From a virus (taxonomy: Duplodnaviria; Heunggongvirae; Uroviricota; Caudoviricetes): a stretch of DNA of 64,000 bases. A model generated the notes under the pieces. It did no database searches and had not been told where the DNA came from. It saw only the letters and a program-made list of their open reading frames with translations. Both the position numbers and the translations under genes were made by a program. Positions 4,794-60,965 of this stretch are shown piece after piece; position 1 is the first letter of the stretch; each line of letters starts with the position of its first letter. Location of the stretch: IMG/VR virus record IMGVR_UViG_3300028888_000051, positions 163,384-227,383 of that record. One strand, written 5' to 3'.

Positions 4794-5114
4794 ATGACAA
4801 AAGAAATTAAAATTTTAGTTAAAGGTAAATATGGTATTGGTAAAACTACATTTATAAATACTATACGAGATATTTTAAAAAAGAATAAAAAATTTAAAGA
4901 ATTATTTGAAGGTTATGAATTTGATGTTTATGAATTTACTACAGATGAAGAAAAAGAAAGTCAAGCGGCTACAAGTAAAAAATGGACCATTACAGAAGGT
5001 AAATTTGAAGAACAAGAATTTATGGTTGTAGCTTATAAAAAATCTTTTTTCAAAGGAATTTGGTTAGCTATAATTAAGATGTTTAAAGCAATTTTTAAAC
5101 TATTTATAAGATAA
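4794..5114 (+). CDS. small P-loop protein (106 aa) with hydrophobic C-terminus
   Basis: N-terminal Walker-A-like VKGKYGIGKTT; AAGGAGA RBS; C-terminal GIWLAIIKMFKAIFKLFI amphipathic/hydrophobic tail. Confidence 0.5.
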   Translation: MTKEIKILVKGKYGIGKTTFINTIRDILKKNKKFKELFEGYEFDVYEFTTDEEKESQAATSKKWTITEGKFEEQEFMVVAYKKSFFKGIWLAIIKMFKAIFKLFIR

Positions 5115-11552: not shown

Positions 11553-12092
11553 ATGACTAAAGTAAATATGATTGTTGCTATTGGTCCAGATAATATAATT
11601 GGATATAGTAATAAATTAGCTTGGCATTCAAAAAAAGATCTTGAGCATTTTAAAAATATAACTTTAAATAGACCAGTAATATTTGGAACAACAACTTTTT
11701 TTGGTTTACCTAAATATCCATTACCAAATAGATTAAATATTGTATTAGATAATAGTGAATATAAAGTATTTAATATCAATGCCATAAATGATAATAAAGG
11801 TGGTTGGATTGAAGCAACTTCAGTTGAAAGTGCCTTAGAATTTTGTAAAAATTTTGATAATATATTTATTTGTGGAGGAGCATCTATTTATAAATATTGT
11901 TTAGAAAAAAATTTAATAGATTGTGCATATATAACAAAAGTGAATTGTAAATTAGAAAATAGAGATGATTATATAAAATTTCCATTTGATATTAATAGAT
12001 ATTTAAATTATGAAAAATGGGATGCTAAATTAGAAGAAACAGTTTTTGATGAAGAAATTCAATTAGAATTCTGGAAATATATTAAAAAATAA
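11553..12092 (+). CDS. folA: dihydrofolate reductase
   Basis: MIVAIGPDNIIGYSNKLAWHSKKDLEHFKNIT, IFGTTTF and ICGGASIYKY match DHFR signature regions. Confidence 0.85.
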   Translation: MTKVNMIVAIGPDNIIGYSNKLAWHSKKDLEHFKNITLNRPVIFGTTTFFGLPKYPLPNRLNIVLDNSEYKVFNINAINDNKGGWIEATSVESALEFCKNFDNIFICGGASIYKYCLEKNLIDCAYITKVNCKLENRDDYIKFPFDINRYLNYEKWDAKLEETVFDEEIQLEFWKYIKK

Positions 12093-20818: not shown

Positions 20819-21715
20819 ATGTCAAATGAATTAGTATTAAATTCAGAATGGACGCCTTTTTTAATAGAAAACAGAGCTTCTATTACATTTGATAAATTTT
20901 TAGATTTAATTAAACAATTAGATAACAATAGTTCACCAAATTTATGGACAAAATGGAAAAATTATGCTAATCAAGTAGTTATAGAAACACCAAATTACTA
21001 TTTTAAGTTATATGAAGATGATTATTTATGTGGTTCATTTTGGTCATTAATTCGCTCTACTTTAGGAGAGATATATACAAAATATTTTAATATTTTGTGG
21101 GATGTTAATATTATAAAGCAAAATAGTAAAATATATACACTCGAAAGACGTCAAAAATTAAATGTATGTATACCGAATTCAATTTTATATACTGATTTAC
21201 TTCTTAATTGGTCAAATACACTTAAAAAACTAGAAAATGAACTTTTATTATCAGAAATATGTCAACAACTTAAACCATATATTCCAGAATTAGCAGAACT
21301 TAAGTTGATACGTAATTGTATAAATAAATATGCAGATTATGCTATTACTGAAGATAATAATATTGTACTTTTAGATGATTCCGATTGGTTTATAGCTATG
21401 GTTGATAAAAACGGTAAATGGTTAAATTCAAAATTTAAAGGTTATAATATAATTTCTAGTTTAGGAGAAACAATTTTTGCTCCAGAGGGTTATTTTGATA
21501 AAGGAAATATAACTAAACATGAAGAATTTACAAATAAATGGCAAATTTATATGGAAAATATTAAAACTACAGAAATAGAAGGAATTTTATTTGATCAACG
21601 TGAACAAATGCTCAAAGATAATATATCTTTGATATTTAATCAAAAACTTTTGCCTAATCAAAATATAAAATCTTTTGATTCAGTAGGTGATTTACTTAAA
21701 ATTGGTTTTGAATAA
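20819..21715 (+). CDS. hypothetical protein (298 aa from the internal ATG)
   Basis: Track ORF starts at 20789 inside the upstream gene. ATG at 20819 (MSNELVL) follows the upstream stop and is the more likely start. The 3' end overlaps the convergent rSAM gene by 20 nt. Confidence 0.5.
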   Translation: MSNELVLNSEWTPFLIENRASITFDKFLDLIKQLDNNSSPNLWTKWKNYANQVVIETPNYYFKLYEDDYLCGSFWSLIRSTLGEIYTKYFNILWDVNIIKQNSKIYTLERRQKLNVCIPNSILYTDLLLNWSNTLKKLENELLLSEICQQLKPYIPELAELKLIRNCINKYADYAITEDNNIVLLDDSDWFIAMVDKNGKWLNSKFKGYNIISSLGETIFAPEGYFDKGNITKHEEFTNKWQIYMENIKTTEIEGILFDQREQMLKDNISLIFNQKLLPNQNIKSFDSVGDLLKIGFE

Positions 21716-22742
21716 ATTCTCTATCACAGATAACACATTCATCAGAATCTATATAGGCGCAATAATTTAGTTGATGTCCACATTTAGCTGTAAGAAATTC
21801 TAAGCAATTACCTTCTTTTTCATTTAATTCATTTCGTGTATGTTTATTTCTATGATTTAATTGCATACGATGATTATCATCTGATTCATTGAAATTTCTA
21901 TACAAATCATCTGCACGATAAATTATATTAAAAAGTTTATCATATAAACCTGGGCAATCTTCTTTAAATTTAATTAAAAATTTTAAAAAATCTTCTCTTT
22001 TTGGAAAAAAACCCGGTAATCTTTTTTCCATTAATTGTTTAGCTTCCATGTATTGTTCAATTTTTGATAAGTTTTCATGAATAGGTTTAATTCCACCTGG
22101 AGAAGGTTGTTTAAAAAACATAGAAGTATGATATTTATTCATAAAATCATTAAAAGAAAATTCACCATTCAGATATTTGGTAATTATATCTTGAGTTAAA
22201 ATGGTACAAGTGTTAAAATTTAATGTTGGATATTTTTCATGTAAATTTAACATGTTATTTGACCAATTTTCTTGCATTTTTGGTAAATGAAAACGACCGA
22301 TCGTATCATAAGATGTAACAAGCCATACTTGATTTATTAATTCTGGTTTTCCGGCTTGAATATACATTTTTTTCATAATATCCAAAGAAGTATATAAATC
22401 TTTTTGTGAACCTATTGTAAGGGTACACATAATCCATACTTCACGTATTTTACCTGAAATTTGTAATTCTGCAGTTTTTTGCATAAGATTAAAAAATTTA
22501 TTTTTGACTTCATCTACATCAAGTTGACCTTGAAAAAATTCTCCACCTATATAAGATACTGTGTTATATGGAATCATTTTTTTGTTATCAGATAAAAAAT
22601 TATAAGCATCATCAAGTGCCTTAATTTTTAATTCTGTTGGTGTAAAGCTATTACTGTTTGCATTATAACAAAATACACATTTTTGATTACATTGATGCCA
22701 TAATTCAAACTGTAAACTCTTTTTTTCATTTATATCCATCAT
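21696..22742 (-). CDS. radical SAM enzyme, paralogue D (348 aa)
   Basis: CNQKCVFC (CxxxCxxC) at residues 18-25; YIGGEFF; C-terminal CGHQLNYCAYIDSDECVICD. Confidence 0.8.
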   Translation of the reverse strand: MMDINEKKSLQFELWHQCNQKCVFCYNANSNSFTPTELKIKALDDAYNFLSDNKKMIPYNTVSYIGGEFFQGQLDVDEVKNKFFNLMQKTAELQISGKIREVWIMCTLTIGSQKDLYTSLDIMKKMYIQAGKPELINQVWLVTSYDTIGRFHLPKMQENWSNNMLNLHEKYPTLNFNTCTILTQDIITKYLNGEFSFNDFMNKYHTSMFFKQPSPGGIKPIHENLSKIEQYMEAKQLMEKRLPGFFPKREDFLKFLIKFKEDCPGLYDKLFNIIYRADDLYRNFNESDDNHRMQLNHRNKHTRNELNEKEGNCLEFLTAKCGHQLNYCAYIDSDECVICDREFIQNQF

Positions 22743-23659
22743 TAGTCTCCTATCATTTCTAAAAAGTTTTCAACATCACTTCTTGGATGTATGTTAGAAT
22801 CAAAATATCCATAATTGTTTTCATCACAATAGGTATTCTTTTTATTTTCTGAATTATGTCTATCATTCATAATATAAAAATCTTTATCGTCAAATGAAGA
22901 ATAACATGTATCACTATGATTTACAATATTTATAAAATTTTCTAAATCATCTTTTGTAAACATTTTTGTTTCATAAGTATATTGTAAAAATTTAAGAAAG
23001 GTTTCTCTTCTCGGAAAAAAATTAGATAAAATTTTATTTTCGAAATCTTCAACATTTTTACATAGATGACCATAACCAGTCATTGGTAGCATATAATTTG
23101 TAAAGCAATTATAATTTTCATTGAATTCTTTTAAATTTAAACGATTAGACAACACTGCTTCTAACATAGCTTGAGTAACAATCATTTCAACATGAAGTTT
23201 TAAATTTGGATAATTTTTATGTAAAAATAACATATTATTTTGCCAATTTTTTAAAGTGTTATTATTAAATCTACCAATTATATCCCAAGAAGTACAAATC
23301 ATAAATTGATTCTGAAAGTTCTTTATATATTCACAAAATTCTAATAATTCAGAATTATCATCAAACATTAAAGCTGTTGTAATAAGACAGCGTTTAGCTA
23401 TTCCCATTTTAATTTTATTTATAAAACAGTCTATAATTTTATAAAAGTATTTTTTAACTTCAGCTGTATCTATTTCACCATTAAAAAATTCTCCACCGAT
23501 TATACCAAAATCAGAATATTTATCAGCTTCTTTTGTATTAAGAATATCTAAAACTTTTTTCATACATTTAACTTTATCTCTATGTCTAGGTATACCGTTA
23601 TTATAGCAAAATTTACATCCAAATGAACATTGTTTCCATAATTCAAATTGTAAAAACAT
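22742..23659 (-). CDS. radical SAM enzyme, paralogue C (305 aa), C-terminal Cys module degenerate
   Basis: CSFGCKFC; IIGGEFF; C-terminus YCDENNYGYFDSN lacks the EC..CD part. Confidence 0.8.
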   Translation of the reverse strand: MFLQFELWKQCSFGCKFCYNNGIPRHRDKVKCMKKVLDILNTKEADKYSDFGIIGGEFFNGEIDTAEVKKYFYKIIDCFINKIKMGIAKRCLITTALMFDDNSELLEFCEYIKNFQNQFMICTSWDIIGRFNNNTLKNWQNNMLFLHKNYPNLKLHVEMIVTQAMLEAVLSNRLNLKEFNENYNCFTNYMLPMTGYGHLCKNVEDFENKILSNFFPRRETFLKFLQYTYETKMFTKDDLENFINIVNHSDTCYSSFDDKDFYIMNDRHNSENKKNTYCDENNYGYFDSNIHPRSDVENFLEMIGD

Positions 23660-23660
23660 A

Positions 23661-24584
23661 TTACTCTCCTAGTATAAGTAAATCACAAAGCATACATTCA
23701 TCTGAATCTGCATAACATCTATATAATTCACTATGACCACATTCGGTAATATTTTCTTTACCATCAGATAAAATTGGTTGTTGAGTTATATCATTATTTT
23801 TATTACGTAAACCAGTATATTTATAAATCGCCGAAGCGTTAGTTGAACTATACATATTAGTATATATCTGTGGAAAGTTTTCTTTCAAATATATACAAAA
23901 ATTAAGAAAATCTTCACGTTTGAAGAAAAAGTCATTTAATTTAAAACCAGAATGTATTGGATGAGGATATAAAAAACAAAAATTACATCCTTTTAGTTCT
24001 TCTTCTAAAAAATATTTAAAATCAAATTTGTTAGACATAATATCATCAATAAGATATTGAGTTAAAATCATTTGAACTCCAACTGCATAATTATATCTAT
24101 CTCTAAATTTTTTGATATTTTCTAAAGCTAATAATCTTTTTTCTTCTGAAGGATATCTATATTTTATATCATAAGAAAAATTTACATCTATAAATCGCAT
24201 GTCTCCTGTTTTTTCTTTGATTCTGTCTATAACACGAAATAAAAATGCTGGATCATACATTCCATTAGTTACAGTTGAATAGCGACATCTATAAGAAGTA
24301 CTAACTAATAATATTTTATTTATGATGTCATCTATTAAAAGCATAAATTCATCTTGTATATCTTTATCGGTTATAAAATACAATTCACCACCTAAAAGAG
24401 ATATACCATCAGCAAATTTATCTTTCCAATCAATATAATCCAAATTTTTTCTTATTTTATGTATTTCTTCAATAAGTCTAGATTTATCCCAAACTTCACG
24501 ATTTTTTCGTAAACAGAATTTACAGTTATTGTTACAATTTGGCCAAAGTGAATATTGATTCATATAATGTTTAATTTCTAACAT
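23661..24584 (-). CDS. radical SAM enzyme, paralogue B (307 aa)
   Basis: CNNNCKFC; LLGGELY; C-terminal CGHSELYRCYADSDECMLCD. Confidence 0.8.
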   Translation of the reverse strand: MLEIKHYMNQYSLWPNCNNNCKFCLRKNREVWDKSRLIEEIHKIRKNLDYIDWKDKFADGISLLGGELYFITDKDIQDEFMLLIDDIINKILLVSTSYRCRYSTVTNGMYDPAFLFRVIDRIKEKTGDMRFIDVNFSYDIKYRYPSEEKRLLALENIKKFRDRYNYAVGVQMILTQYLIDDIMSNKFDFKYFLEEELKGCNFCFLYPHPIHSGFKLNDFFFKREDFLNFCIYLKENFPQIYTNMYSSTNASAIYKYTGLRNKNNDITQQPILSDGKENITECGHSELYRCYADSDECMLCDLLILGE

Positions 24585-25451
24585 TTACATTTTCTCCATT
24601 ATTTCTTTTAGCACTTTACAATCACAAACAAAACATTCATTTGAATCAGAATAACATTTTTTAAAATTTTCTGAATGACCACATTTACTTTTATTTGATG
24701 AGATATCAACTAGTTTTCCATTTTCAGATTTTTGTAAAATAATATTTTGATTTAAAAGAAAATTATTACAATATTCTGTACCATAACCTGGAAGTTGTTC
24801 ATTAAGTTTTAGAATAGTTTTAAAAACAGTTTCTCTTGTTGGAGCTTTTATGTCTTTTCCAAATTTTATATAGGGTATTGTATTTACTTTAACGTTATAG
24901 TTATTTTCATACTCAGCTATGTTAAATTTTTCAGATAATACATCATTACAAAAACTTCTGGTTAAAATAATATTGACATATATAAGTAACTCAGGAAATA
25001 AATTTCTAATTTCAGTGAGATTAAAATAAAATTGTTTCATAGAAAAAGAATTAGAAAATCTTCCATCTCCATCACCAGAAGTAGTAAAATGTATTCTATT
25101 TTCTAATTTATAATCTTTTATCATATTTAATATTGGTAAAAGAAGTTCATGAATATCATATAAAATATTTGTATTAATATAACATAATTCAATTTCATTT
25201 TTTAACATTTTTTCACAAGTTAATTTGAATAATTTAAATAATTGTGAATTTATTATTGTATTTTTTTCTGCAAATATTTCACCACCAACGAATAGTATAT
25301 GTGTATCAGTTAAGTCTTTTACTGCATTATATATTAATTTTATCGATTCAAGTTGTTCTTCATGAGTTTGTTGTTTTTCTCTTTTTTGCCAGCAAAATTT
25401 ACAATTATTTGGACAATTATTCCAAAGAATGAATTCATGTATAGGTAACAT
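24585..25451 (-). CDS. radical SAM enzyme, paralogue A (288 aa)
   Basis: CPNNCKFC; FVGGEIF; C-terminal CGHSENFKKCYSDSNECFVCDC; first gene of the four-gene operon. Confidence 0.8.
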   Translation of the reverse strand: MLPIHEFILWNNCPNNCKFCWQKREKQQTHEEQLESIKLIYNAVKDLTDTHILFVGGEIFAEKNTIINSQLFKLFKLTCEKMLKNEIELCYINTNILYDIHELLLPILNMIKDYKLENRIHFTTSGDGDGRFSNSFSMKQFYFNLTEIRNLFPELLIYVNIILTRSFCNDVLSEKFNIAEYENNYNVKVNTIPYIKFGKDIKAPTRETVFKTILKLNEQLPGYGTEYCNNFLLNQNIILQKSENGKLVDISSNKSKCGHSENFKKCYSDSNECFVCDCKVLKEIMEKM

Positions 25452-28674: not shown

Positions 28675-29259
28675 TTAAAATTCTTTTGTTTGTAACCAGT
28701 GTTTTCTACAAACAGATTTATACACTATATTATCTTTTTCGATTCCTATAACTTTATTTGAAGTATCTGGTTTTCTATTTACATAACGTAAATGATGTGT
28801 TGCTTTATTTGTACAATCTGGTTTTTCACATAACATTTCTATTTCTTGTATTTCATCTGCAAATTCAATAAAAGCTTTTGTACCTTCAAAAAGATTTCCA
28901 TTAATATCATTTTTTAGACCATATGCAATAATATTTATATTTTGTTGTTCAATTAACTTTGAAATAAAAATTACATCATCACGAGTAAAAAATTGTGCTT
29001 CATCAATAATAATTATTTTATCATAATTTATATTGTTTAATTCATTTTCAAAATTTTCAATATAATAAGCAGGTATTTTTTCTTTAATCAGTCTAGAAGT
29101 AGTATATCCCCAACCTTTTTGATTTCCATCTCGTGTATCTATAACTGGTTTTATTATAATAGGATTCATGTTTTTATATTTGTACATTTGATATGTTTTT
29201 ATTGCATTTACTGATTTACCTGCATTCATACATCCATAATAAAACTTTAATTTTGTCAT
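28675..29259 (-). CDS. tdk: thymidine kinase
   Basis: P-loop YGCMNAGKS; IIIDEAQFF; C-terminal zinc-site pattern C..C...H / C..H typical of type II TK. Confidence 0.85.
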   Translation of the reverse strand: MTKLKFYYGCMNAGKSVNAIKTYQMYKYKNMNPIIIKPVIDTRDGNQKGWGYTTSRLIKEKIPAYYIENFENELNNINYDKIIIIDEAQFFTRDDVIFISKLIEQQNINIIAYGLKNDINGNLFEGTKAFIEFADEIQEIEMLCEKPDCTNKATHHLRYVNRKPDTSNKVIGIEKDNIVYKSVCRKHWLQTKEF

Positions 29260-29362: not shown

Positions 29363-30163
29363 CTAAGAAAATAACTTTACAAGCTTTTGCCAGAATGTAT
29401 CTGGATTTTTAACTTTTGCAACTATTACCTCTTCTTTTTTATTTTTAATAATAGATTGGCCAGAGAGTAAATAGTTTTTAAGATCATCATACTCAGCATT
29501 ATACCTCGCTTTATATTCTGGATACTTGATCTTTCTATATGTATATAATTTTTCTAAAAATTTTTCTTTCGTAAGAATATTTTTATTAAAACATATACTT
29601 TGGAAGATTTTATAAGCACCACCTTGTCCATGTTGTATAATAGTAGACTTAACTGCTGCTTGAATAGCATTATCTTCAGAAGCCCAAGATGTTAATTTAT
29701 TAAAATTACTATTGCCGTTTTTATCCATACGAATATAAACAGGAATTATTTCTTTTTTTAATAAAAAATTATCATATGAATTTCTAAAAGATTTTTCAGT
29801 AGCTATTTTCTTCCATATATTTATAAAATTTTTATTACCAGCATATGCAGCTCTATAACCACCTGCTTGTATTAATATATCATAATACTTATAATTATTA
29901 TCTTTTAAATATGTTAAAAAGAAATCAAAAGTAGATGGTAAATTGTTCTTTCTCCAAGTAGATATTTGCCACTTTCCATAAGAATAACCACCATATCCAT
30001 CCTTACTTATTGCTTGATACCCTAATTTACCACATTCATATTTTGCTACAATATCATGCTTTGTATGAAGAGCATCATAATTTGTTTTGGCTTGAACTGT
30101 TACTATATTTCCAAAAATAACTAAAGTTATATAATAACTTAACCAAAAGATTTGTTTAATCAT
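29363..30163 (-). CDS. secreted protein, possibly lysozyme-like glycoside hydrolase
   Basis: N-terminal signal peptide (hydrophobic core, VQA cleavage-like site). DGYGGYSYGKWQIS resembles muramidase/VgrG3-type motifs (weak, from memory). Confidence 0.35.
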   Translation of the reverse strand: MIKQIFWLSYYITLVIFGNIVTVQAKTNYDALHTKHDIVAKYECGKLGYQAISKDGYGGYSYGKWQISTWRKNNLPSTFDFFLTYLKDNNYKYYDILIQAGGYRAAYAGNKNFINIWKKIATEKSFRNSYDNFLLKKEIIPVYIRMDKNGNSNFNKLTSWASEDNAIQAAVKSTIIQHGQGGAYKIFQSICFNKNILTKEKFLEKLYTYRKIKYPEYKARYNAEYDDLKNYLLSGQSIIKNKKEEVIVAKVKNPDTFWQKLVKLFS

Positions 30164-36250: not shown

Positions 36251-37018
36251 TTATTTTACACTGTTTATAAATGGAATTGGAGCTGAGCCATAAATATTTA
36301 CTGGTAATTTTCCATCCCATTTTTGTACAGCTTCATAAGCAACTAAATTTTGATTTTTACTTAGGGCTTCAGAACGAATAGCCATTGACTTAGCCTCTGC
36401 TTCAGCAGCAAGAACTTTTTGTTTAGCTTCTTCTTGGACTTCAGCTGTTCTATTCCTTGCTTCTTCAGCCTTTTGTGTTGCTACAACTTTAGCTTCAATT
36501 GCTCTTTCAAAAGCATCTGTATATTCAATATTATTTAAAGAAACTGAACTTATTTTTATATAAAAAGCTGTCAAAGTTGTATTTAAATCTCTTTTAATTT
36601 CATCTGTAGCTTTTTCACGATTAGCAACAAGATTTGCAGCATCCCATTTACCAATCACATCTTTAACAACAGCCTCAGCATTAGGACGTAATACTTTTTC
36701 TTCATAATTTTTACCAATTTCACGATGTAAATTAATAATATTATCTAAATCAAGACGATAATTGAGAGTAATTTTCATATTAGCCGTTTGAATATCTTTT
36801 GTATAGGTCTCTATTTCCATTGTATATTTTTGAGTTTTACCTTCATATTCAATTACATTACCACCAAATGGCATATAAAAATATAAACCTTCTTCTAATG
36901 GCTTTTCTGAAGTAATTTCACCCCACATTGTCTTCAAACCACGATTACCTGTATCAATTTGCTCACCACATCCAGTTAATGAGCAAACAATAAATAAAAC
37001 AGTAAAAATTTTTTTCAT
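36251..37018 (-). CDS. SPFH/band-7 (prohibitin-like) lipoprotein
   Basis: Lipobox SLTGC after a signal peptide; SPFH core; Ala/Glu-rich coiled coil QKAEEARNRTAEVQEEAKQKVLAAEAEAK; WDGKLP ending typical of the prohibitin/HflKC class. Confidence 0.8.
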   Translation of the reverse strand: MKKIFTVLFIVCSLTGCGEQIDTGNRGLKTMWGEITSEKPLEEGLYFYMPFGGNVIEYEGKTQKYTMEIETYTKDIQTANMKITLNYRLDLDNIINLHREIGKNYEEKVLRPNAEAVVKDVIGKWDAANLVANREKATDEIKRDLNTTLTAFYIKISSVSLNNIEYTDAFERAIEAKVVATQKAEEARNRTAEVQEEAKQKVLAAEAEAKSMAIRSEALSKNQNLVAYEAVQKWDGKLPVNIYGSAPIPFINSVK

Positions 37019-37034
37019 TTGTATCCCCTTTAAT

Positions 37035-37229
37035 TTATTTATCTTTTTGTGAATAAAGTTTATTTATTATCTTTTTTCTACCATTACTAGTTAAAAATAA
37101 TATTGGTGAAAAAAGAATAATAAGTAATTTTGTTTTTGGTTTAAACATTCGATTAAATTGCATAATAATTATAAATGCCCATATTGTAATAAAATAAGCA
37201 CATAAAATACGTAAAATTAAAATACTCAT
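37035..37229 (-). CDS. small membrane protein (64 aa, two hydrophobic segments)
   Basis: Sits directly upstream of the SPFH gene in the same operon. Confidence 0.5.
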   Translation of the reverse strand: MSILILRILCAYFITIWAFIIIMQFNRMFKPKTKLLIILFSPILFLTSNGRKKIINKLYSQKDK

Positions 37230-37244
37230 TTATTATTTTCTCCT

Positions 37245-37871
37245 TTAAAATCCAGTAGCAACTAAAACTAAAGCATTTTCTTTAACTTCAACTGGTATTT
37301 CACCAATTGTATGATATTTAAGTGTATGTAATTCATAATAAGCATTAAATTTTCTTTCAGCAATTACATGATAACCGTTAATTGTTTCAAATGTTGCTTT
37401 ATAATATTTATCACAAAGATTAATAACTTTATCTAATAAAGCTTTACTTTTACTATCTATATCAAATAACCAATATCTACTCTTTTTATCAGAAGAAGTA
37501 TCTTTCATACAATTACTTGTTAATAATTTTGCATAATTTTTTGCTGAAAATTCAATTCTTTGATTACATAAAGCTGGATCTAATAATTTAGTTATATCAT
37601 CACGTAAAGTAACCATAGATTTAATATATGATTTTCTATCAGTACACATATAAAGTCTACATTTATTATCTTCTATTACTTTTTTCATTTCAGGTATGTA
37701 CCAATATAAATCTTTAATACTAGATATTACCCAAGTTTGTATGATTTTACTTTCTTTTTCTAAATAAATTTTTGGATCATCTTTTCTACGCTTTAAAGCA
37801 ATAAAAAAGTAATAAGAATGACCAATATTGTATTTCATTATGAAATCTAATTTATCAAAGTTATTAATCAT
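37245..37871 (-). CDS. hypothetical protein (208 aa) with DxD and G-Y-H motifs
   Basis: YWLFDIDSK ... TINGYHVIA is reminiscent of AEP primase-polymerase motifs I/II; unverified. Confidence 0.45.
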   Translation of the reverse strand: MINNFDKLDFIMKYNIGHSYYFFIALKRRKDDPKIYLEKESKIIQTWVISSIKDLYWYIPEMKKVIEDNKCRLYMCTDRKSYIKSMVTLRDDITKLLDPALCNQRIEFSAKNYAKLLTSNCMKDTSSDKKSRYWLFDIDSKSKALLDKVINLCDKYYKATFETINGYHVIAERKFNAYYELHTLKYHTIGEIPVEVKENALVLVATGF

Positions 37872-37882
37872 TAAAGGTCTCT

Positions 37883-38470
37883 TTATTGATGGTTTTTAAC
37901 TATTTCATCAGTAACACCATAATCAATTGCTTCTTCTGCTGACATCCAAAAATCACGTTCACAATCTTTTTTAACTTGATTAATATCTTTATTTGTAGCA
38001 TTAGCGATCATTTGCATTAACATATCTTGTAATCTGCTAACTTCTTCTAATGTAATTTTCATATCATGAACATTTGCTTGCATACCACTACTAACAGAAT
38101 GAAGCATATATCTAGCATGAGGCATTATTTTACGCATACCTTTTGTACCAGATAATGCAATCATAGCATCCATAGAGGCAACTTCACCTGATACAATAGT
38201 TGATACAGGACATGAAATCATATTCATAGTATCAATAATCTGTAAACCAGCTGTTACACTTCCACCTGGTCCACTAACAATCATTGTAATAGGTTTATCT
38301 TTATCTTCTGCTTCTAAATATAAAAGTTGAGCAACAACACTTTCGGCTAATTCATCATCAACTTTACCACAACATAAAATTAATCTATCACGAATTAATC
38401 TTGAAGTAATATCAACTTGACGTTCGTTACCATTAGAATCTTTATAAATAACTGATGGAATTCCTATCAT
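37883..38470 (-). CDS. clpP: ATP-dependent Clp protease proteolytic subunit
   Basis: GPGGSVTAGLQIIDTM, GEVASMDAM (catalytic Ser context), MLHSVSSG (His) and WMSAEEAIDYGVTDEI are collinear with ClpP. Confidence 0.85.
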   Translation of the reverse strand: MIGIPSVIYKDSNGNERQVDITSRLIRDRLILCCGKVDDELAESVVAQLLYLEAEDKDKPITMIVSGPGGSVTAGLQIIDTMNMISCPVSTIVSGEVASMDAMIALSGTKGMRKIMPHARYMLHSVSSGMQANVHDMKITLEEVSRLQDMLMQMIANATNKDINQVKKDCERDFWMSAEEAIDYGVTDEIVKNHQ

Positions 38471-41027: not shown

Positions 41028-42377
41028 TTAAGCTATAATATTATCTGGTCCATTATTAATTGATAAATCATATTTTTGTTTATAAAAAGGACCTACTTTA
41101 TTTAGCATTTTTTTAACCGTAGAGTGAATACTTTCATTTTCTAAATCAATTATGCCTTCAGGAACCTCTTGCTTACCACGAAGTAAAATACGAGCAATAA
41201 GTTGACCTAATTCAAAGCACATAGATTCATCAAAACCCCGAGTTGTAATCGCTGGAGTACCAATTCTAATTGCAGAAGATTCAGATGGTTTAGTATCACC
41301 CGGCATCATGTTTTTATTACAAATAATATGATATGATGTTAATAAGTCTTCAGCCTGTTTACCATTTATACCAGAATTTCTAAGGTCTACTAATACCATA
41401 TGATTTTCTGAGCCATTACTAATGAATCCTATTTTATTTTCTTTATCGAAATCTCTTATACCATTGATAAGTGCTTGCATATTACAATATACTTGTTCTA
41501 TATAATCTTTAAATTCTGGTTTGAGAGCTTCAATAAAACATTGTGCTTTAGCAGCAACAAGTGCTTCATTTGGACCACCTTGAATTTTTGGAAAACACCC
41601 ACTGTTAATTTTACTACAAAGTTTTTGGTCATTCCAAAGAATTATACCACCACGAGGTCCTCTTAAAGTTTTGTGTGTTGTAGAAGTGATCACATCACAC
41701 CATTTAGTTGGATCATATTTATCTTTCCATAAATGAGCAGCAATAAATCCCATTACATGAGCTGAATCAGACATAAGATAACATTTTGTTTCTTCATCCC
41801 TACCAAGATTATATACATCTACCAATTTCCTTATATATTCATAATTAATTCGTTTAGAATAAGCTGAAGCTCCAACAACTAACATTCTTGGATGATATTG
41901 AAGTAATTTTTGTTTAATTTCTTCATAATTCAATTCACCATTTTCATCAAGACCATAATATACAGGATTATATATATGACCTGTTAATGAAGCTTTAGAG
42001 TAGTGTGTCAAATGTCCGCCATATTCTATGCCCATTCCAAGTACTGTATCACCTGGTTTTAAAAGACCTGCATATACAGCTTGATTAGCCTGAGAGCCAG
42101 AATGAGGTTGAACACAAGCAAAATTTACATTAAATAATTCTTTAGCTTTTTCTATAGCATAATTTTCTACTTCATTTATTACTTCACATCCAGCATAATG
42201 ACGTCCCTGTTTAGAAACTTCATTTGGAAATCCTTCTGCATACTTTACAGATAAATGACTTCCCAAAAGATCAAGAATATCTTGACTTGGATAGTTTTCT
42301 GAAGCTATTAATTCAATACCATCATTAAGACGATTTGTCTCTTTGCTTTCTAATTGTTGTAATTTTTGATCAATCAT
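41028..42377 (-). CDS. glyA: serine hydroxymethyltransferase
   Basis: LIASENY, YAEGFP, VQPHSGSQAN, GGHLTH and TTHKTLRGPRGG (PLP-Lys context) are all present in order. Confidence 0.95.
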   Translation of the reverse strand: MIDQKLQQLESKETNRLNDGIELIASENYPSQDILDLLGSHLSVKYAEGFPNEVSKQGRHYAGCEVINEVENYAIEKAKELFNVNFACVQPHSGSQANQAVYAGLLKPGDTVLGMGIEYGGHLTHYSKASLTGHIYNPVYYGLDENGELNYEEIKQKLLQYHPRMLVVGASAYSKRINYEYIRKLVDVYNLGRDEETKCYLMSDSAHVMGFIAAHLWKDKYDPTKWCDVITSTTHKTLRGPRGGIILWNDQKLCSKINSGCFPKIQGGPNEALVAAKAQCFIEALKPEFKDYIEQVYCNMQALINGIRDFDKENKIGFISNGSENHMVLVDLRNSGINGKQAEDLLTSYHIICNKNMMPGDTKPSESSAIRIGTPAITTRGFDESMCFELGQLIARILLRGKQEVPEGIIDLENESIHSTVKKMLNKVGPFYKQKYDLSINNGPDNIIA

Positions 42378-42943: not shown

Positions 42944-43663
42944 TCATAAAGCGAAAAATTCCCACTTCTTCTTTTTACAATACTCTAATGCACTATTATG
43001 TAAATTGCAAGAAGAACAATTGTTACATGGTTTTTTATCAACACAACCTGGAGATTGACAATATGAACAATATTTTAATATTTTATGCTCATGTAAATAC
43101 CACAAAATATATTTCTTTTCAACCCACTCAAATGGTAAATATAAACTAGCATTAGCTTTACTCATTGAGTTTATAGTTTCAAAAAGATTATTAAATTTAT
43201 CTATAAAGTGCCATATATCATCATTTTTTATATATCCACATGAGATTAAACGGTTATTACCCCTAATTAAATTCGATATCATACTTAAAAACAATTGTGG
43301 CTGACTAATACCTCCTCCATTACAATAATCATCACAATCACCATTTTCTTTAATTTCAAATGTAATGTGATTAACTAATATTTTTTGCTTTTTAAATATC
43401 TTAAGTAATTGTTTTTGAGCAATTATATCAGCAGGATAACTTCCGAATCGGTCATAATTTATAGAAACAAGATTGATAGTTTTATGGAACTTTTCCCACA
43501 AATATAATACTAAAGCTGTAGAATCACATCCACCACTCCATAAAACAAAAATGTCTGAAATATTTTCTGGTATTTTTATATAATTACTATACAAATCATT
43601 TACCCAATTAAAAAATTCTGAACCGATTATATCTTCTCGTATATCCATGACTTTCCTATTCAA
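42944..43663 (-). CDS. QueC-like PP-loop ATP pyrophosphatase (7-cyano-7-deazaguanine synthase family, divergent)
   Basis: SGGCDS PP-loop motif near the N-terminus. C-terminal Cys cluster CSYCQSPGC...CNNCSSCNLH sits where QueC has its zinc site. Length 239 aa. Confidence 0.5.
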   Translation of the reverse strand: MNRKVMDIREDIIGSEFFNWVNDLYSNYIKIPENISDIFVLWSGGCDSTALVLYLWEKFHKTINLVSINYDRFGSYPADIIAQKQLLKIFKKQKILVNHITFEIKENGDCDDYCNGGGISQPQLFLSMISNLIRGNNRLISCGYIKNDDIWHFIDKFNNLFETINSMSKANASLYLPFEWVEKKYILWYLHEHKILKYCSYCQSPGCVDKKPCNNCSSCNLHNSALEYCKKKKWEFFAL

Positions 43664-50991: not shown

Positions 50992-51210
50992 ATGTATGAA
51001 AAATTAATAGATCTTAAAGATAATTTTTTATTTTGTATTGCAACTACATTTGTTGGAATTTTAATTATGATAATAGCTAGTGTTATTATAATTATAACAC
51101 TTCCAATGTATTATTTATTTTGGATAAATCCAGTATTTGAAATTTATCAAAATTTAATTTGGAAAATATATGATATATTATTTCAAATTGGATCAGATGA
51201 TGAAATTTAA
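50992..51210 (+). CDS. small membrane protein (72 aa, two hydrophobic segments); holin-like topology
   Basis: FLFCIATTFVGILIMIIASVIIIITLPMYYLFWINPVF; AAAGGAAA RBS. Confidence 0.45.
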   Translation: MYEKLIDLKDNFLFCIATTFVGILIMIIASVIIIITLPMYYLFWINPVFEIYQNLIWKIYDILFQIGSDDEI

Positions 51211-54200
51211 ATTAAGTCTTGCAATTCTTCAGAAGATTGATCTATAAAATTTGAATAATCATTTACTTTTTCTTTTATTTGATTAGAAGAAATATATTCA
51301 TATTGCGGAAAATCTGAATAATTAAGCTGTGCATTATATATAAAACCAACAATTACATCAGCTAAATCTTTTAATTCAGTAGTTCGAGTTACTTTTCCTC
51401 TATCAAAAACAAGAGCCGATAATTCTTTTCTGAGTTTTGGACATATTCCTACTTTTACCTGTCCTAATTCCATTAAAGTAGATGCATTAACATAAGGTTC
51501 AAGTTTTATATCGACTGAAACTTTATTTACTACTTCGAAACATCCCGATTTAGCTAAATTTTGTTGAAAAATTTCTCCATTCCATTGATCGCTTGATACT
51601 GTATGAATTAGCATATTACGTTCAATTACTAAATTTATTAAAAAAGTTTCTATTGCATGTATATCTATTTTATTTCTTGCATTCACAGCTATAAGTAAAT
51701 CAACTACATATATTGTTTCATTTTCTTTTTTATTTTCATTATAACGCCATTCTTTATGACCAATACATATACCAGCATCACATTGTCCAGAATCACCACC
51801 TCCTGCTAAATCTACATGACAATAACGTTTTGCAAAAGGAGCTCTTTTAAATATCCATCTACCATCTGTTAATTGTTCCCATAAATTATATTCATCTAGT
51901 AAAGCTAATATATCATTATTATCACTTATATCAGCTTTAATATTAAATTCTGGAGGCAATTCAGCATCTTCAATTTTTGATATATCTTTAAAGACTGTAC
52001 TGTTATCTACAGTTGTCATTCCTGCAATATCTTGAATAGACTGATCTAATTGTAATTCAAATTTTTCTTTATATACAGTTGGAACATTTATTACTTCACA
52101 TCCAATGGGTGGTATATAATTTCCATCTTCTAAAGCTTTCAATTCACCAGGATCGGTAAATATTTTAGAAGGAATTGAGCCATTACCAACAAGAACAGGA
52201 AATGTAGAGCCATCACCTAAAAACTCAGGATCTTCTTTAACTTCCCAAAGCCGAGGCATAAGAATAAGAATAGATGGATCATTTTTTGGCAATCGACGTA
52301 TGTATTCACCAATAGGACTATTTGTTGTACGAGCTGATGATACAACTGACTGAAATACTAAAGGACTTCCTTGAAAACGTGAACTAAAACGATTATCAAC
52401 TGAATTAAGAAGTGCCAAAGCTTCATCTACACCTTTTTCATTGATCTCATCCATAAAGCTATTTACTATATTCAAACCTATAGTATGAGTTATACCTGAA
52501 CCAGATGTAATAATAATATTGTCTGGAAAATATATCGTGCCTGTCGATTTTTCCACATTAAATGGTATTGGACAATGTGGATCCGATAAATCAAAATTTT
52601 CAAAAGATTGCATTCGCATAACTCTTTGAAAACACGGCATTGTTTCCATAAGTTTAACAAATGGTAATAAATTTGTTTCATAAACTTGTTTTAAAGTCAT
52701 AGAAATAATAACATTTGCTATTGTTGCATCACTATCTATATTAAATACTGCTCTAGGATAACGTAAACATAATATACGATATAAAACATATAAAAAAGCT
52801 TTACGAGCAATTGTTGACTTACCACAATTATGTGCAATTATACCAGCCTTTAAAGCAAAATTATGATTTTTTTCTGTAGTTATATCATAAACTTGTTGTT
52901 TACCTATATATTCTATAGAAATTATTTTATGATTGTATATTTTTTTACGCTTGTAATTTTCTTTAGCCCCTAAAGTAGGATCATACCAAGGCTCTCTTGT
53001 ATGAATAAATGCTAATAATTCAATGTATTTTTGATTTTCTTTTCCATGGAATCTTGCAATAGTAGCTAATACTTGTTTAGCCAATATAATTGCTTTTTCT
53101 TCAGGACTTTTGTTGGCTTTTAAATTACGCATATTTTCAGCCATTTTTTTAGAAATATTTCTAGCCTTTTCTGTTTTATTTCTTTCTATTAAAGTTTTAC
53201 TTGCTCTTTGTCTATATTCTTCACTATGTGGACCATTCCAACCGGCAAGCGAAGCTTTTCTTTGGTGTTCTGAATCTTGATGTAGTTTATTCCATCCAAT
53301 TTTTCTTTTTGCTTCTATCTCTTCATAATCTAAGCGAGCTTTATAGGTAATATGACTTTTTATTCCTTTTTGTCTTCTGTATTCTTTAAATTCATCACCT
53401 CTAATTGAAGCATTATATTCTTTCCATCTTCTACCTCCAACTTTAGCGTGATATTCCCAATGATATTTGTGAGGTATAATAGCTAAATTTTGAGGTCTAT
53501 CATCTAATTTATTAAAATTTTTATGGTGAACAACTTGTCCAGTTTTATATAAAGTTTTCCATTTACCTACTATTTGATATCTTTTTTCCCATTTTTCAGT
53601 AGTATTATTTTTTATTTGAATATATCCTTTATCACTAATTTTTGAATAATAAGGCATCATAGATTCACCAGATTTTAATCCAGTATCTATACTTTTCCAT
53701 TTATTTTTTCTTGTTAAAAATCTATGATCTGATGTACATTTAATTATTTCACCATTGTCTAAAGTTATTTTATACACATCTTTTATACCACTACAAAATA
53801 CATTAATTATCTTATCTGGTTCCCAAGTTTTATTAAATGTATTAAATGATAATACCCATTCATTATTATAATTATTAAGTAATTCATAAATTGTTTTATT
53901 ACCATTTAAAGTAGCTACTATCGTATCACCGGTTAAGCAACCAATACTTCCACCAAATATAGTTTTTCTTACTGGTGAGCCTTCCCTAAACATATATTCA
54001 AGTTGTTGTCGCCAATAAGGATATAATGTAGCATTACTATTATACATATAAAATTTACCAGATAAAAATTCTTCAATATTAGGCATAGGTCGTCTATATA
54101 AAAGATTATCAATTTGATCTGTTAAATCAGAATCCTGATTTGTTAATGTCAAATATAAAGCAATACGTTTTTGTATTTCTTGTTGCTTTTTAAATTCATC

Positions 54201-54344
54201 TGGCATATAATGCTCTTCATAATATGCTAAAATGTCTATAAAATCTTGTGACATAATAACATTTTGAAGTTCATTTGCATTATTAAATGAAACTATTGGA
54301 AGATTTTCTAATTTTTTTGCAATATCAGTAGGAAGTTGTTCCAT
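51207..54344 (-). CDS. terL: terminase large subunit, interrupted by an intein in the Walker A motif
   Basis: The exteins join to FGGSIG|CGKST (P-loop). Walker B-like SFMDEINE. Nuclease-domain pattern CHVDLAGGGD...DAGICIGH. Confidence 0.85.
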   Translation of the reverse strand: MEQLPTDIAKKLENLPIVSFNNANELQNVIMSQDFIDILAYYEEHYMPDEFKKQQEIQKRIALYLTLTNQDSDLTDQIDNLLYRRPMPNIEEFLSGKFYMYNSNATLYPYWRQQLEYMFREGSPVRKTIFGGSIGCLTGDTIVATLNGNKTIYELLNNYNNEWVLSFNTFNKTWEPDKIINVFCSGIKDVYKITLDNGEIIKCTSDHRFLTRKNKWKSIDTGLKSGESMMPYYSKISDKGYIQIKNNTTEKWEKRYQIVGKWKTLYKTGQVVHHKNFNKLDDRPQNLAIIPHKYHWEYHAKVGGRRWKEYNASIRGDEFKEYRRQKGIKSHITYKARLDYEEIEAKRKIGWNKLHQDSEHQRKASLAGWNGPHSEEYRQRASKTLIERNKTEKARNISKKMAENMRNLKANKSPEEKAIILAKQVLATIARFHGKENQKYIELLAFIHTREPWYDPTLGAKENYKRKKIYNHKIISIEYIGKQQVYDITTEKNHNFALKAGIIAHNCGKSTIARKAFLYVLYRILCLRYPRAVFNIDSDATIANVIISMTLKQVYETNLLPFVKLMETMPCFQRVMRMQSFENFDLSDPHCPIPFNVEKSTGTIYFPDNIIITSGSGITHTIGLNIVNSFMDEINEKGVDEALALLNSVDNRFSSRFQGSPLVFQSVVSSARTTNSPIGEYIRRLPKNDPSILILMPRLWEVKEDPEFLGDGSTFPVLVGNGSIPSKIFTDPGELKALEDGNYIPPIGCEVINVPTVYKEKFELQLDQSIQDIAGMTTVDNSTVFKDISKIEDAELPPEFNIKADISDNNDILALLDEYNLWEQLTDGRWIFKRAPFAKRYCHVDLAGGGDSGQCDAGICIGHKEWRYNENKKENETIYVVDLLIAVNARNKIDIHAIETFLINLVIERNMLIHTVSSDQWNGEIFQQNLAKSGCFEVVNKVSVDIKLEPYVNASTLMELGQVKVGICPKLRKELSALVFDRGKVTRTTELKDLADVIVGFIYNAQLNYSDFPQYEYISSNQIKEKVNDYSNFIDQSSEELQDLI
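52827..53939 (-). mobile_element. class-1 intein (371 aa) with HNH endonuclease domain
   Basis: Starts CLTGDTIV; block B CTSDHRF; HNH core VVHHKNFNKLDDRPQNLAIIPHKYHWEYH; ends VYDITTEKNHNFALKAGIIAHN followed by the +1 Cys. Coordinates derived from residues 136-506 of the track ORF. Confidence 0.8.
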
Positions 54345-60707: not shown

Positions 60708-60965
60708 ATGACAGAACAAGTAGATGTTGAAGTCGGTGGTTTAAATACTGAAAGATTAAAATCTATTATTGAACGTATAGAAAATGTAGATAATGAGATT
60801 AATGCATTAAAAGAAGATAGAAAAGGTATAATGCTTGAAGCAAAATCTGCAGGTTTTGATACAAAAGCTATTACCCATGTTATTAAACAAAGAAAAAAGA
60901 ATAAAGCACAGCGAGATGAAGAGGAATTAGTTTTCGAAACCTATGAAAGAGCTGTTGGTTTATAA
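60708..60965 (+). CDS. gapR: GapR-like (DUF2312/UPF0335) DNA-binding protein
   Basis: LKSIIERIENVDNEINALKEDRKGIMLEAKSAGFDTKAITHVIKQRKKNKAQRDEEELVFETYERAVG is collinear with Caulobacter GapR as I recall it. Confidence 0.75.
   Translation: MTEQVDVEVGGLNTERLKSIIERIENVDNEINALKEDRKGIMLEAKSAGFDTKAITHVIKQRKKNKAQRDEEELVFETYERAVGL

Follow-up and report, generated by a model that had tools for sequence, protein, structure and literature searches.

A divergent QueC-like PP-loop protein with a putatively remodelled substrate pocket, from an apparently phage-restricted subfamily, in an uncultured jumbo phage

The characterised zinc-bearing enzymes of the QueC clade are three, QueC, Cap9 and QatC, and all of them act (QatC as proposed) on 7-carboxy-7-deazaguanine (CDG). 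The canonical QueC signature comprises SGGxDS, YxQxHxxE, VPxRN, YPDC, K165 and C(x)8CxxCxxC (Libby et al. 2026, PMC13329287), and mutagenesis of the E. coli enzyme found Y35, R99, Y131 (where an aromatic residue is required) and Y189 to be essential, the Y131F variant being partly active (PMC13329287). Structural work on QatBC (PMC13279940) adds that in Cap9 the residue Y115 stacks on the deazaguanine and D117 reads its Watson-Crick edge; in B. subtilis QueC their counterparts are Y129 and D131, from the Y-P-D of YPDC, whose Asp reads N1/N2 of the deazaguanine. The 2026 survey of PF06508 described no virus-dominated cluster (PMC13329287), so that the phage branch treated here is unmapped in the current family framework. 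As for phages, Cui et al. 2023 (PMC10516641) concluded that a DpdA-family protein is encoded by every one known to have 7-deazaguanine DNA, while Hutinet et al. 2019 set aside the phage QueC singletons of SP-15, SFP10, ECML-4 and Muddy, SP-15 and Muddy being singletons at the genome level, without deazaguanine pathway genes (PMC6884629).

The locus under study lies in a stretch of 64,000 nucleotides (the window), with a G+C content of ~26%, which corresponds to about 9.5-73.5 kb of a 227,378-bp ENA contig; 7 kb more on each side were covered, giving a total of ~78 kb. An initial annotation, made by reading the sequence, had called a minus-strand ORF (42944..43663, 239 aa counted from a TTG) a lone, divergent QueC-like PP-loop enzyme and had taken it as a hint of 7-deazaguanine DNA modification. 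The ORF is a real gene: comparison with four relatives of 85-89% amino-acid identity gave pairwise dN/dS values of 0.12-0.22, therefore it is a functional protein-coding gene. Its start, however, should be moved, since the full-length homologues are all 232-234 aa long and begin at an internal Met, and a Shine-Dalgarno-like AGGAAAG precedes the corresponding ATG; the gene most likely encodes a protein of 234 aa, with the TTG falling inside the leader. The features of the gene and of its product are collected in Table 1.

Table 1. Position of the QueC-like gene, of its start and stop signals and of the motifs of its product; all positions are those of the window.
Feature	Position	Strand	Evidence
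QueC-superfamily PP-loop ATP pyrophosphatase gene, 234 aa (most likely extent)	42944..43648	-	ORF, homologue starts, dN/dS, HMM scores
Stop codon TGA	42944-42946	-	
ATG start (most likely)	43646-43648	-	
Shine-Dalgarno-like AGGAAAG, 2 nt upstream of the ATG	43651..43657	-	sequence read directly
TTG start of the initial annotation, just upstream of AGGAAAG, inside the leader	43661-43663	-	
PP-loop SGGCDS, aa 38-43, ATP pyrophosphate-binding loop, inside the subfamily motif W-S-G-G-C-D-S-T	43520..43537	-	(nearly) invariant in 147 subfamily representatives and alignment A5
Remnant of QueC YxQxHxxE, INYDRFGSYPAD, aa 63-74	43427..43462	-	hhalign alignment, translation
GISQPQLF, aa 113-120, subfamily motif G-x-x-Q-P-x-x-W, in place of the QueC FVPGRN loop	43289..43312	-	
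GYIKNDDIWHFIDKF, aa 138-152, subfamily motif G-Y-I-[RK]-x-D-D-x-W-H-[YF]	43193..43237	-	
PFEWVEK, aa 172-178; K178 opposite conserved QueC K165 and Cap9 PF(x)4K	43115..43135	-	motif definitions PMC13329287
Cys cluster CSYCQSPGCVDKKPCNNCSSC, C194-x2-C197-x10-C208-x2-C211-x2-C214, presumed Zn site	43007..43069	-	
Further Cys C224, invariant in the window clade	42977-42979	-	

The relationship of the protein to QueC was assessed with several profiles. It scored 36.8 bits against the Pfam QueC model (PF06508; gathering score 22), a family also present in the precomputed annotation of its homologues, and matched PHROG 1550 ('QueC-like queuosine biosynthesis') with an E value of 1e-21, which places it in the QueC superfamily. 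In contrast, it obtained 23.2 bits on the QueC equivalog TIGR00364 (NCBIfam), where the cut-off is 150.3, and 12.1 bits on PRK11106 (vs 378). We also built two HMMs of our own. The canonical one derives from six proteins, namely E. coli QueC (a query sequence confirmed by a 100% tblastn match), two QueCs from PDB alignments, and the QueCs of three phages with proven or predicted deazaguanine systems, Skure, phiSM and immuto; canonical QueCs scored 288-393 bits on it, the three phage enzymes lying at 288-378, and the window protein 12.4. On a second HMM, representing the subfamily described below and built without the window protein's own clade, the order was inverted, with 199.6 bits for the window protein, 228 for SP-15 gp114 and 93-108 for the Ackermannviridae proteins of GR28A, 1.255.O (105 bits) and KWBSE43-6, and just 22-51 for canonical QueCs, the scores on both HMMs being bimodal. 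A single-sequence phmmer search of the window protein against the PDB returned noise and nothing more; hhalign of the subfamily against the canonical QueC alignment gave a probability of 98.4% and an E value of 5e-15 over 185 columns, and at the level of profiles the resemblance to QueC is far beyond chance. The description as a divergent QueC-like protein was thus borne out and so was the superfamily, but not a place among canonical QueCs: with its low canonical HMM and equivalog scores and the lost motifs detailed below, the protein is a QueC homologue that fails the tests defining a preQ0 synthase.

Two of the elements shared with QueC were found exactly as first described. The SGGxDS loop that, placed behind the first beta-strand of a Rossmann-like fold, defines the PP-loop (N-type) ATP pyrophosphatase superfamily is present, and a six-frame search found the SGGCDS of this protein to be the sole copy of SGGxDS in the window. 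The C-terminal cysteine cluster is present as well; C197, C208, C211 and C214 stand opposite the four zinc cysteines of QueC (3BL5, 2PG3 and E. coli QueC), with a spacing of x10 in the Cys motif versus x8 in QueC, and the four residues presumably bind zinc.

The substrate-recognition motifs are a different matter. Y35, Q37, H39, E42, V96-P97, R99-N100, Y131-P-D-C and Y189 are kept in all six canonical QueCs, phage ones included, whereas according to hhalign the window protein departs from YxQxHxxE, VPxRN, YPDC and Y189 alike. The YGQRH segment had been reported as missing, and indeed the stretch aligned to YxQxHxxE (Y65-D-R-F-G-S-Y-P) keeps just the tyrosine (Y65, equivalent to E. coli Y35), with Q37 changed to R, H39 to G and E42 to P. 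A six-residue deletion lies opposite FVPGRN, leaving R99 with no equivalent and the subfamily G-x-x-Q-P in its place. F148 stands opposite Y131, the P-D-C of YPDC is deleted and D133 has no counterpart; a weaker profile offered an alternative register pairing F148-I-D150 with Y-P-D, although subfamily members do not conserve D150. Finally, the essential Y189 is replaced by Q198, a position occupied by E in 130 of the 147 subfamily representatives. These correspondences come from profile alignments and from an AlphaFold2 (AF2) model (pLDDT 88, from a 54-sequence alignment, which replaced an earlier model of pLDDT 49 from six close homologues), and on this basis the substrate pocket of QueC is predicted to be remodelled in the window protein. 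With the VPxRN loop and P-D-C deleted and Y189 changed to Q, a role as preQ0 synthase is therefore very unlikely; the substrate, the acceptor or both are predicted to differ from those of QueC.

The positions lost from QueC are occupied by other motifs, which define a subfamily. When 1.84 billion cluster representatives were searched exhaustively with a profile, 900 relatives (representatives at 50% identity) were retrieved at E <1e-3 and 412 at E <1e-10, mostly of 190-300 aa; a word-indexed search of 5.8 billion proteins yielded just about ten close homologues. Alignment of the best 147 of the 900 gave the signature W-S-G-G-(C)-D-S-T; A-R78; G113-x-x-Q116-P-x-x-W120; G138-Y-I-[RK]-x-D143-D144-x-W146-H147-[YF]; P172-[LF]-E-W-x-x-K178; and C197-E...C208-G-x-C211-x-x-C214...H217. 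No invariant column of alignment A5 is lost in the window protein, which belongs to the subfamily, its clade departing from the majority at R78Q, W120F and E198Q and retaining Tyr65 where most members have His65. Members of PHROG 1550 share with it W-SGGxDST, G..QP..W, GYI.xDDxWH and P.EW..K, their C-E...CGxCxxC having E where the window protein has Q198. PHROG 1550 already covers the subfamily, and its function has been noted as obscure in the literature; what is new here is one divergent member.

The most conserved motif, GY[IV][RK]xD[DC]xWH, was then searched in 185,579 bacterial and archaeal species (one genome each), and detected just two relatives, one from Gemmata and one from a Phycisphaerae MAG, a count that refers to this one strict motif and passes over members departing from it. 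As judged from these searches the subfamily appears essentially phage-restricted, unlike QueC, which is ubiquitous in bacteria. Cultured carriers are Bacillus phage SP-15; the Ackermannviridae Vibrio phages YC, GR28A and 1.255.O, Serratia phage phiMAM1 and Taipeivirus KWBSE43-6; the jumbo phages of the PA1C-like group, Noxifer, RSF1/RSL2, FLC9, pVa-21 and pEa_SNUABM_54; Mycobacterium phages DS6A and Muddy (annotated 'ATPase'); and Saccharomonospora phage PIS136. Identity between the window protein and SP-15 gp114 or the Muddy, Ackermannviridae and jumbo-phage members is just 25-35%. The closest viral structural neighbours were the proteins of Muddy, Noxifer, YC and RSF1 and the closest solved structure was Cap9 (PDB 9NTO).

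Regarding the carrier of the gene, megablast of the 8 kb around it against 50,697 phage records gave no match. The phage lacks a close relative in culture, and it does not belong with the T4-like phages of Campylobacter. For its serine hydroxymethyltransferase (SHMT) and its RecA, identity to the nearest cultured relatives is just 44-46%. It is a jumbo phage, uncultured and low in GC, with a genome of about 227-244 kb. Pfam or PHROG scans of 67 window ORFs, including every ORF of at least 120 aa, revealed four tandem radical-SAM paralogues, thymidine kinase, SHMT, DHFR, ClpP and an SPFH protein, in addition to RecA, SbcCD-like proteins, a KAP-NTPase fragment, an intein-bearing MJ0330_N protein, and lysis and tail proteins; there were no tRNA genes in the window. 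The 7-kb flanks contain GroEL/ES, a second ClpP, glutaredoxin, dUTPase and a dNMP kinase.

The absence of a FolE, QueD, QueE or DpdA partner from the window, claimed in the initial annotation, was confirmed. No TGT/DpdA, PTPS/QueD, GTP cyclohydrolase I, QueE, QueF, Q-salvage protein or phosphoribosyltransferase was detected by Pfam or PHROG among the 67 window ORFs, and the DpdA, FolE, QueD, QueE, QueF and QueC sequences of Skure and phiSM, used as tblastn and phmmer queries, had no match of E <0.01 either in the window or in the flanking sequence from four close relatives. For DpdA in particular there was neither a PF01702 match nor similarity to the Skure or phiSM proteins at E <0.01, in a search that covered ~35% of the genome and was of lower sensitivity than the HHpred level needed for DpdA3/DpdA4. 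The recommended search beyond the window was extended to 7 kb on each side and found no Que genes there, so that in ~78 kb of the 227-kb genome Pfam, tblastn and phmmer detected no PTPS or QueE-like match and hence none of the queD or queE linkage known for canonical QueC.

It had also been suggested that one of the unusual radical-SAM paralogues might substitute for QueE. We rejected this candidate: the four proteins gave sub-threshold Radical_SAM and Fer4_12 matches, their best PDB relative was the peptide epimerase YydG (E 9e-6), with QueE absent from the PDB matches, and they share with the radical-SAM proteins of Campylobacter phage CP220 (first 50 kb) the CxxxCxxC region alone. They therefore resemble YydG-type enzymes.

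A similar picture was obtained for the subfamily as a whole. Among viral contigs, members were located at 43 loci, 24 of which lie on contigs of at least 100 kb; further metagenomic phage contigs carry them as well. BLAST clustering of the ORFs within 10 kb (1,381 ORFs, 51 loci) identified no conserved partner gene, as no neighbour family occurred in more than 4 of the 41 non-close loci, and a Pfam census of 138 flanking ORFs found no recurrent neighbour family, the maximum being two members (DNA methylase, DruA, radical SAM). The neighbours of the gene in SP-15, GR28A, KWBSE43-6 and 1.255.O are replication or hypothetical genes, with no Que gene among them. A sole lineage (loci L033 and L043/L044) has QueD and a phosphoribosyltransferase near the subfamily member, L043/L044 having additionally a Q-salvage protein and a radical-SAM protein, and in this lineage the D144 and H147 positions are changed. 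By their 10-kb flanks, then, subfamily members are usually solitary; the deazaguanine pathway genes of Flavobacterium phage immuto are dispersed, so that a lack of partners within 10 kb need not extend to the whole genome.

Taken together, the profile and model comparisons predict a PP-loop ATP pyrophosphatase that binds zinc, falls in the QueC/Cap9 structural clade and is a member of a phage-restricted subfamily. We favour, with a probability of roughly 60%, that it is a stand-alone ligase of this subfamily which neither makes preQ0 nor signals deazaguanine DNA. The fallback offered in the initial annotation, an amidotransferase for another substrate, is in this respect better supported than the DNA-modification hint, given the loss of the QueC substrate residues and the lack of partners in the ~78 kb covered. 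By analogy with the chemistry common to the characterised members of the clade, the SGGCDS loop would bind ATP, a carboxylate (or carbonyl) of the substrate would be adenylated with release of PPi, and an amine or ammonia would displace AMP to leave an amide; the enzyme would work without a conserved phage-encoded partner.

A deazaguanine carboxylate could still be the substrate, since QueC, Cap9 and, as proposed, QatC act on CDG, and this leads to the first of the alternatives: a Cap9/QatC-like phage enzyme that couples CDG to a phage or host protein at its N-terminal amine, or that drains CDG so that type IV CBASS and QatABCD are left unarmed, in a form of counter-defence. QatC provides a precedent for a remodelled pocket, because it likewise keeps the PP-loop and zinc motif while its QueC substrate-recognition residues are replaced. 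However, the residues that hold CDG in QueC and Cap9 are not conserved in the window protein according to the profile alignment. Cap9, the QueC-family ligase of type IV CBASS, has Y/FxQ(x)5E, RN and H(x)4YxDC, none of which is kept, so that the window protein does not match the full set identifying Cap9, to which CE(x)6CxxCxxCxD and a place beside CD-NTase and Cap10 also belong; moreover, Cap9 belongs to a defence island, whereas the window protein is phage-encoded and has no CD-NTase or Cap10 neighbour. QatC is an enzyme of about 400-466 aa with N- and C-terminal extensions, against 234 aa here, and we obtained no significant match to a QatC model and found no QatB or TatD-like QatD; the sole KAP-NTPase match in the window is a 106-aa ORF located 38 kb from the QueC-like gene. 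We regard a Cap9/QatC-like activity as unlikely for this protein. It is also quite improbable that the subfamily as a whole represents a viral counterpart of the Cap9/QatC deazaguanylation enzymes, with ATP-driven capture of host CDG followed by conjugation to a protein N-terminus or by formation of a dead-end amide; if true, the dead-end amide would starve type IV CBASS and QatABCD of their cofactor, a new metabolite-depleting counter-defence found mainly in large phages.

The headline of the initial annotation, 7-deazaguanine in the phage DNA, would require the protein to act either as a divergent QueC or as an ADG synthase comparable to the QueC* proposed for Campylobacter phages, the preQ0 or ADG obtained from host- or phage-made CDG then being put into phage DNA in place of G. 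The protein is, after all, a QueC homologue with intact ATP loop and zinc cluster; Y65 and F148 stand opposite the essential Y35 and Y131, Y131F being partly active (PMC13329287); one lineage of the subfamily adjoins QueD and a phosphoribosyltransferase; and pathway genes can be scattered in large phages, our search having covered ~78 kb of 227 kb. Nevertheless, R99, Y189 and the Asp of YPDC (D133) have no equivalents, while the QueCs of Skure, phiSM and immuto keep all the motifs and reach 288-378 bits on the canonical HMM, against 12 for the window protein. No DpdA, FolE, QueD, QueE or QueF was found in the ~78 kb, and DpdA is encoded by all phages with deazaguanine DNA (PMC10516641); SP-15 and Muddy carry the gene with no pathway genes (PMC6884629). 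Nor is there a detectable link to the Campylobacter systems, as no Campylobacter phage protein in a collection that includes CP220 was similar to subfamily members. The nucleoside content of one carrier is also available. In LC-MS of ViI and ViI-like phages, Vibrio phage 1.255.O among them, Lee et al. 2018 (PMC5889632) saw just one peak besides dA, dG, dC and dT, that of 5-NeOmdU; a low-level modification would have escaped this analysis. Phage 1.255.O encodes a subfamily member and has normal dG, therefore possession of the gene does not go with replacement of G in that phage. The gene by itself is not evidence of guanine replacement in the DNA of the present phage. We consequently disfavour deazaguanine DNA as an explanation, and regard a divergent QueC or QueC*-like enzyme serving it as improbable.

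A third alternative, a PP-loop enzyme of the TilS/TtuA/ThiI type adenylating a base carbonyl in phage or host tRNA, would fit the translation-related genes of large phages, but a protein of only 234 aa with no RNA-binding domain (THUMP, PUA or TilS C-terminal), a C-terminal Cys4 that fits the QueC clade better than the zinc fingers or Fe-S ligands of TtuA, and a window without tRNA genes make it decidedly unlikely. That the gene is a decaying or non-catalytic QueC remnant, as the loss of several QueC catalytic motifs might suggest, is hardly tenable and largely refuted already by conservation, given the dN/dS of 0.12-0.22, the intact PP-loop and four cysteines, and replacement motifs conserved in hundreds of phage homologues.

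These results bear on the annotation of phage genomes. Members of the subfamily automatically receive the labels '7-cyano-7-deazaguanine synthase' or 'QueC-like queuosine biosynthesis', which invite the inference of deazaguanine DNA, and for this subfamily such an inference is unsafe. A simple test separates the two groups: canonical QueC has YxQxH..E, VPxRN and YPDC, and the phage subfamily has W-SGGCDST, QP..W and DDxWH. For a subfamily of 900 representatives whose signature motif is almost absent from cellular genomes, function is a modest but real question, and one that the cultured carriers SP-15, Vibrio phage YC, the ViI-like phages and Muddy make directly testable.

A link to thymidine hypermodification was also considered, as SP-15 and the Ackermannviridae both hypermodify T. 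We found no paper tying a PP-loop enzyme to the pathways concerned, and many of the carriers are phages without known T modification.

The QueC-like subfamily to which the gene in the window belongs appears essentially restricted to viruses. When genomes representing 185,579 species of bacteria and archaea were scanned for its motif GY[IV][RK]xD[DC]xWH, only 2 carried it (L063, L064), those of a Gemmata sp. and a Phycisphaerae MAG, whereas phage contigs carrying the subfamily number in the hundreds.

The initial annotation had considered the gene a hint of 7-deazaguanine DNA modification. In one uncultured phage lineage (loci L043 and L033) a subfamily member is flanked by phosphoribosyltransferase and QueD (PTPS) genes. 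A radical-SAM enzyme and a protein of the Q-salvage type (DUF2419) are encoded close by; no DpdA was seen at these loci. This group of genes may represent a nucleotide-level 7-deazapurine pathway using the QueC-like subfamily. In another phage contig (L008) a DruA-like (Druantia) protein directly precedes the QueC-like gene, and a Mom-family DNA-modification gene lies 8 kb away. Downstream are genes for a nucleoside deoxyribosyltransferase and for a protein resembling dNMP kinases.

Regarding the radical-SAM paralogues of the window, one of which the annotation had suggested might substitute for QueE, the four proteins (348, 305, 307 and 288 aa) share 24-34% identity. All of them display CxxxCxxC and GGE and, towards the C-terminus, the motif C..Y.DS(D/N)EC..CD. 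Pfam gave sub-threshold matches only; the top PDB relative was the peptide epimerase YydG (E 9e-6), followed weakly by viperin-like enzymes, and QueE was absent from the matches.

The window also holds a folate and thymidylate gene set composed of serine hydroxymethyltransferase (SHMT), DHFR and thymidine kinase; shortly past the end of the window come genes for dUTPase and for a dNMP kinase (L056). SHMT is uncommon in phages; the closest phage matches of this one, at 43-46% identity, are from Aeromonas T4-like phages and one Enterococcus phage. The order QueC-like gene followed by SHMT is kept in close relatives.

Coordinates of features in the window and at related loci
Feature	Location	Strand	Remark
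MJ0330_N protein, second, 674-aa fragment	window 15-2039	+	cut by window start
KAP-NTPase fragment, 106 aa	window 4794-5114	+	adjoins SbcCD-like genes
DHFR	window 11553-12092	+	
Four radical-SAM paralogues	window 21696-25451	-	in tandem
Thymidine kinase	window 28675-29259	-	
266-aa protein, VgrG3-like C-terminal/Ntox47-related	window 29363-30163	-	
Span of the SPFH/Band-7 and ClpP genes of the next two rows	window 36251-38470	-	
SPFH/Band-7 protein	window 36251-37018	-	
ClpP	window 37883-38470	-	
SHMT	window 41028-42377	-	downstream of QueC-like gene, three small ORFs away
MJ0330_N protein, 1045 aa	window 51207-54344	-	intein-splicing domain
GapR-like DNA-binding protein	window 60708-60965	+	downstream of RecA
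Second ClpP, GroES, GroEL, glutaredoxin	L058 913-5603		<=7 kb upstream of window
QueC-like gene with phosphoribosyltransferase and QueD (PTPS) neighbours	L043 9212-19979; L033 8394-16803		one uncultured phage lineage
QueC-like gene neighbourhood	L008 1924-2700 and 8443-9630		296-kb phage contig

The two ClpP genes and those for SPFH, GroES, GroEL and glutaredoxin make up a proteostasis set that is unusual for a phage. The 266-aa protein is probably a lytic enzyme, and the second MJ0330_N protein reaches 976 aa when read in the full contig (L058).
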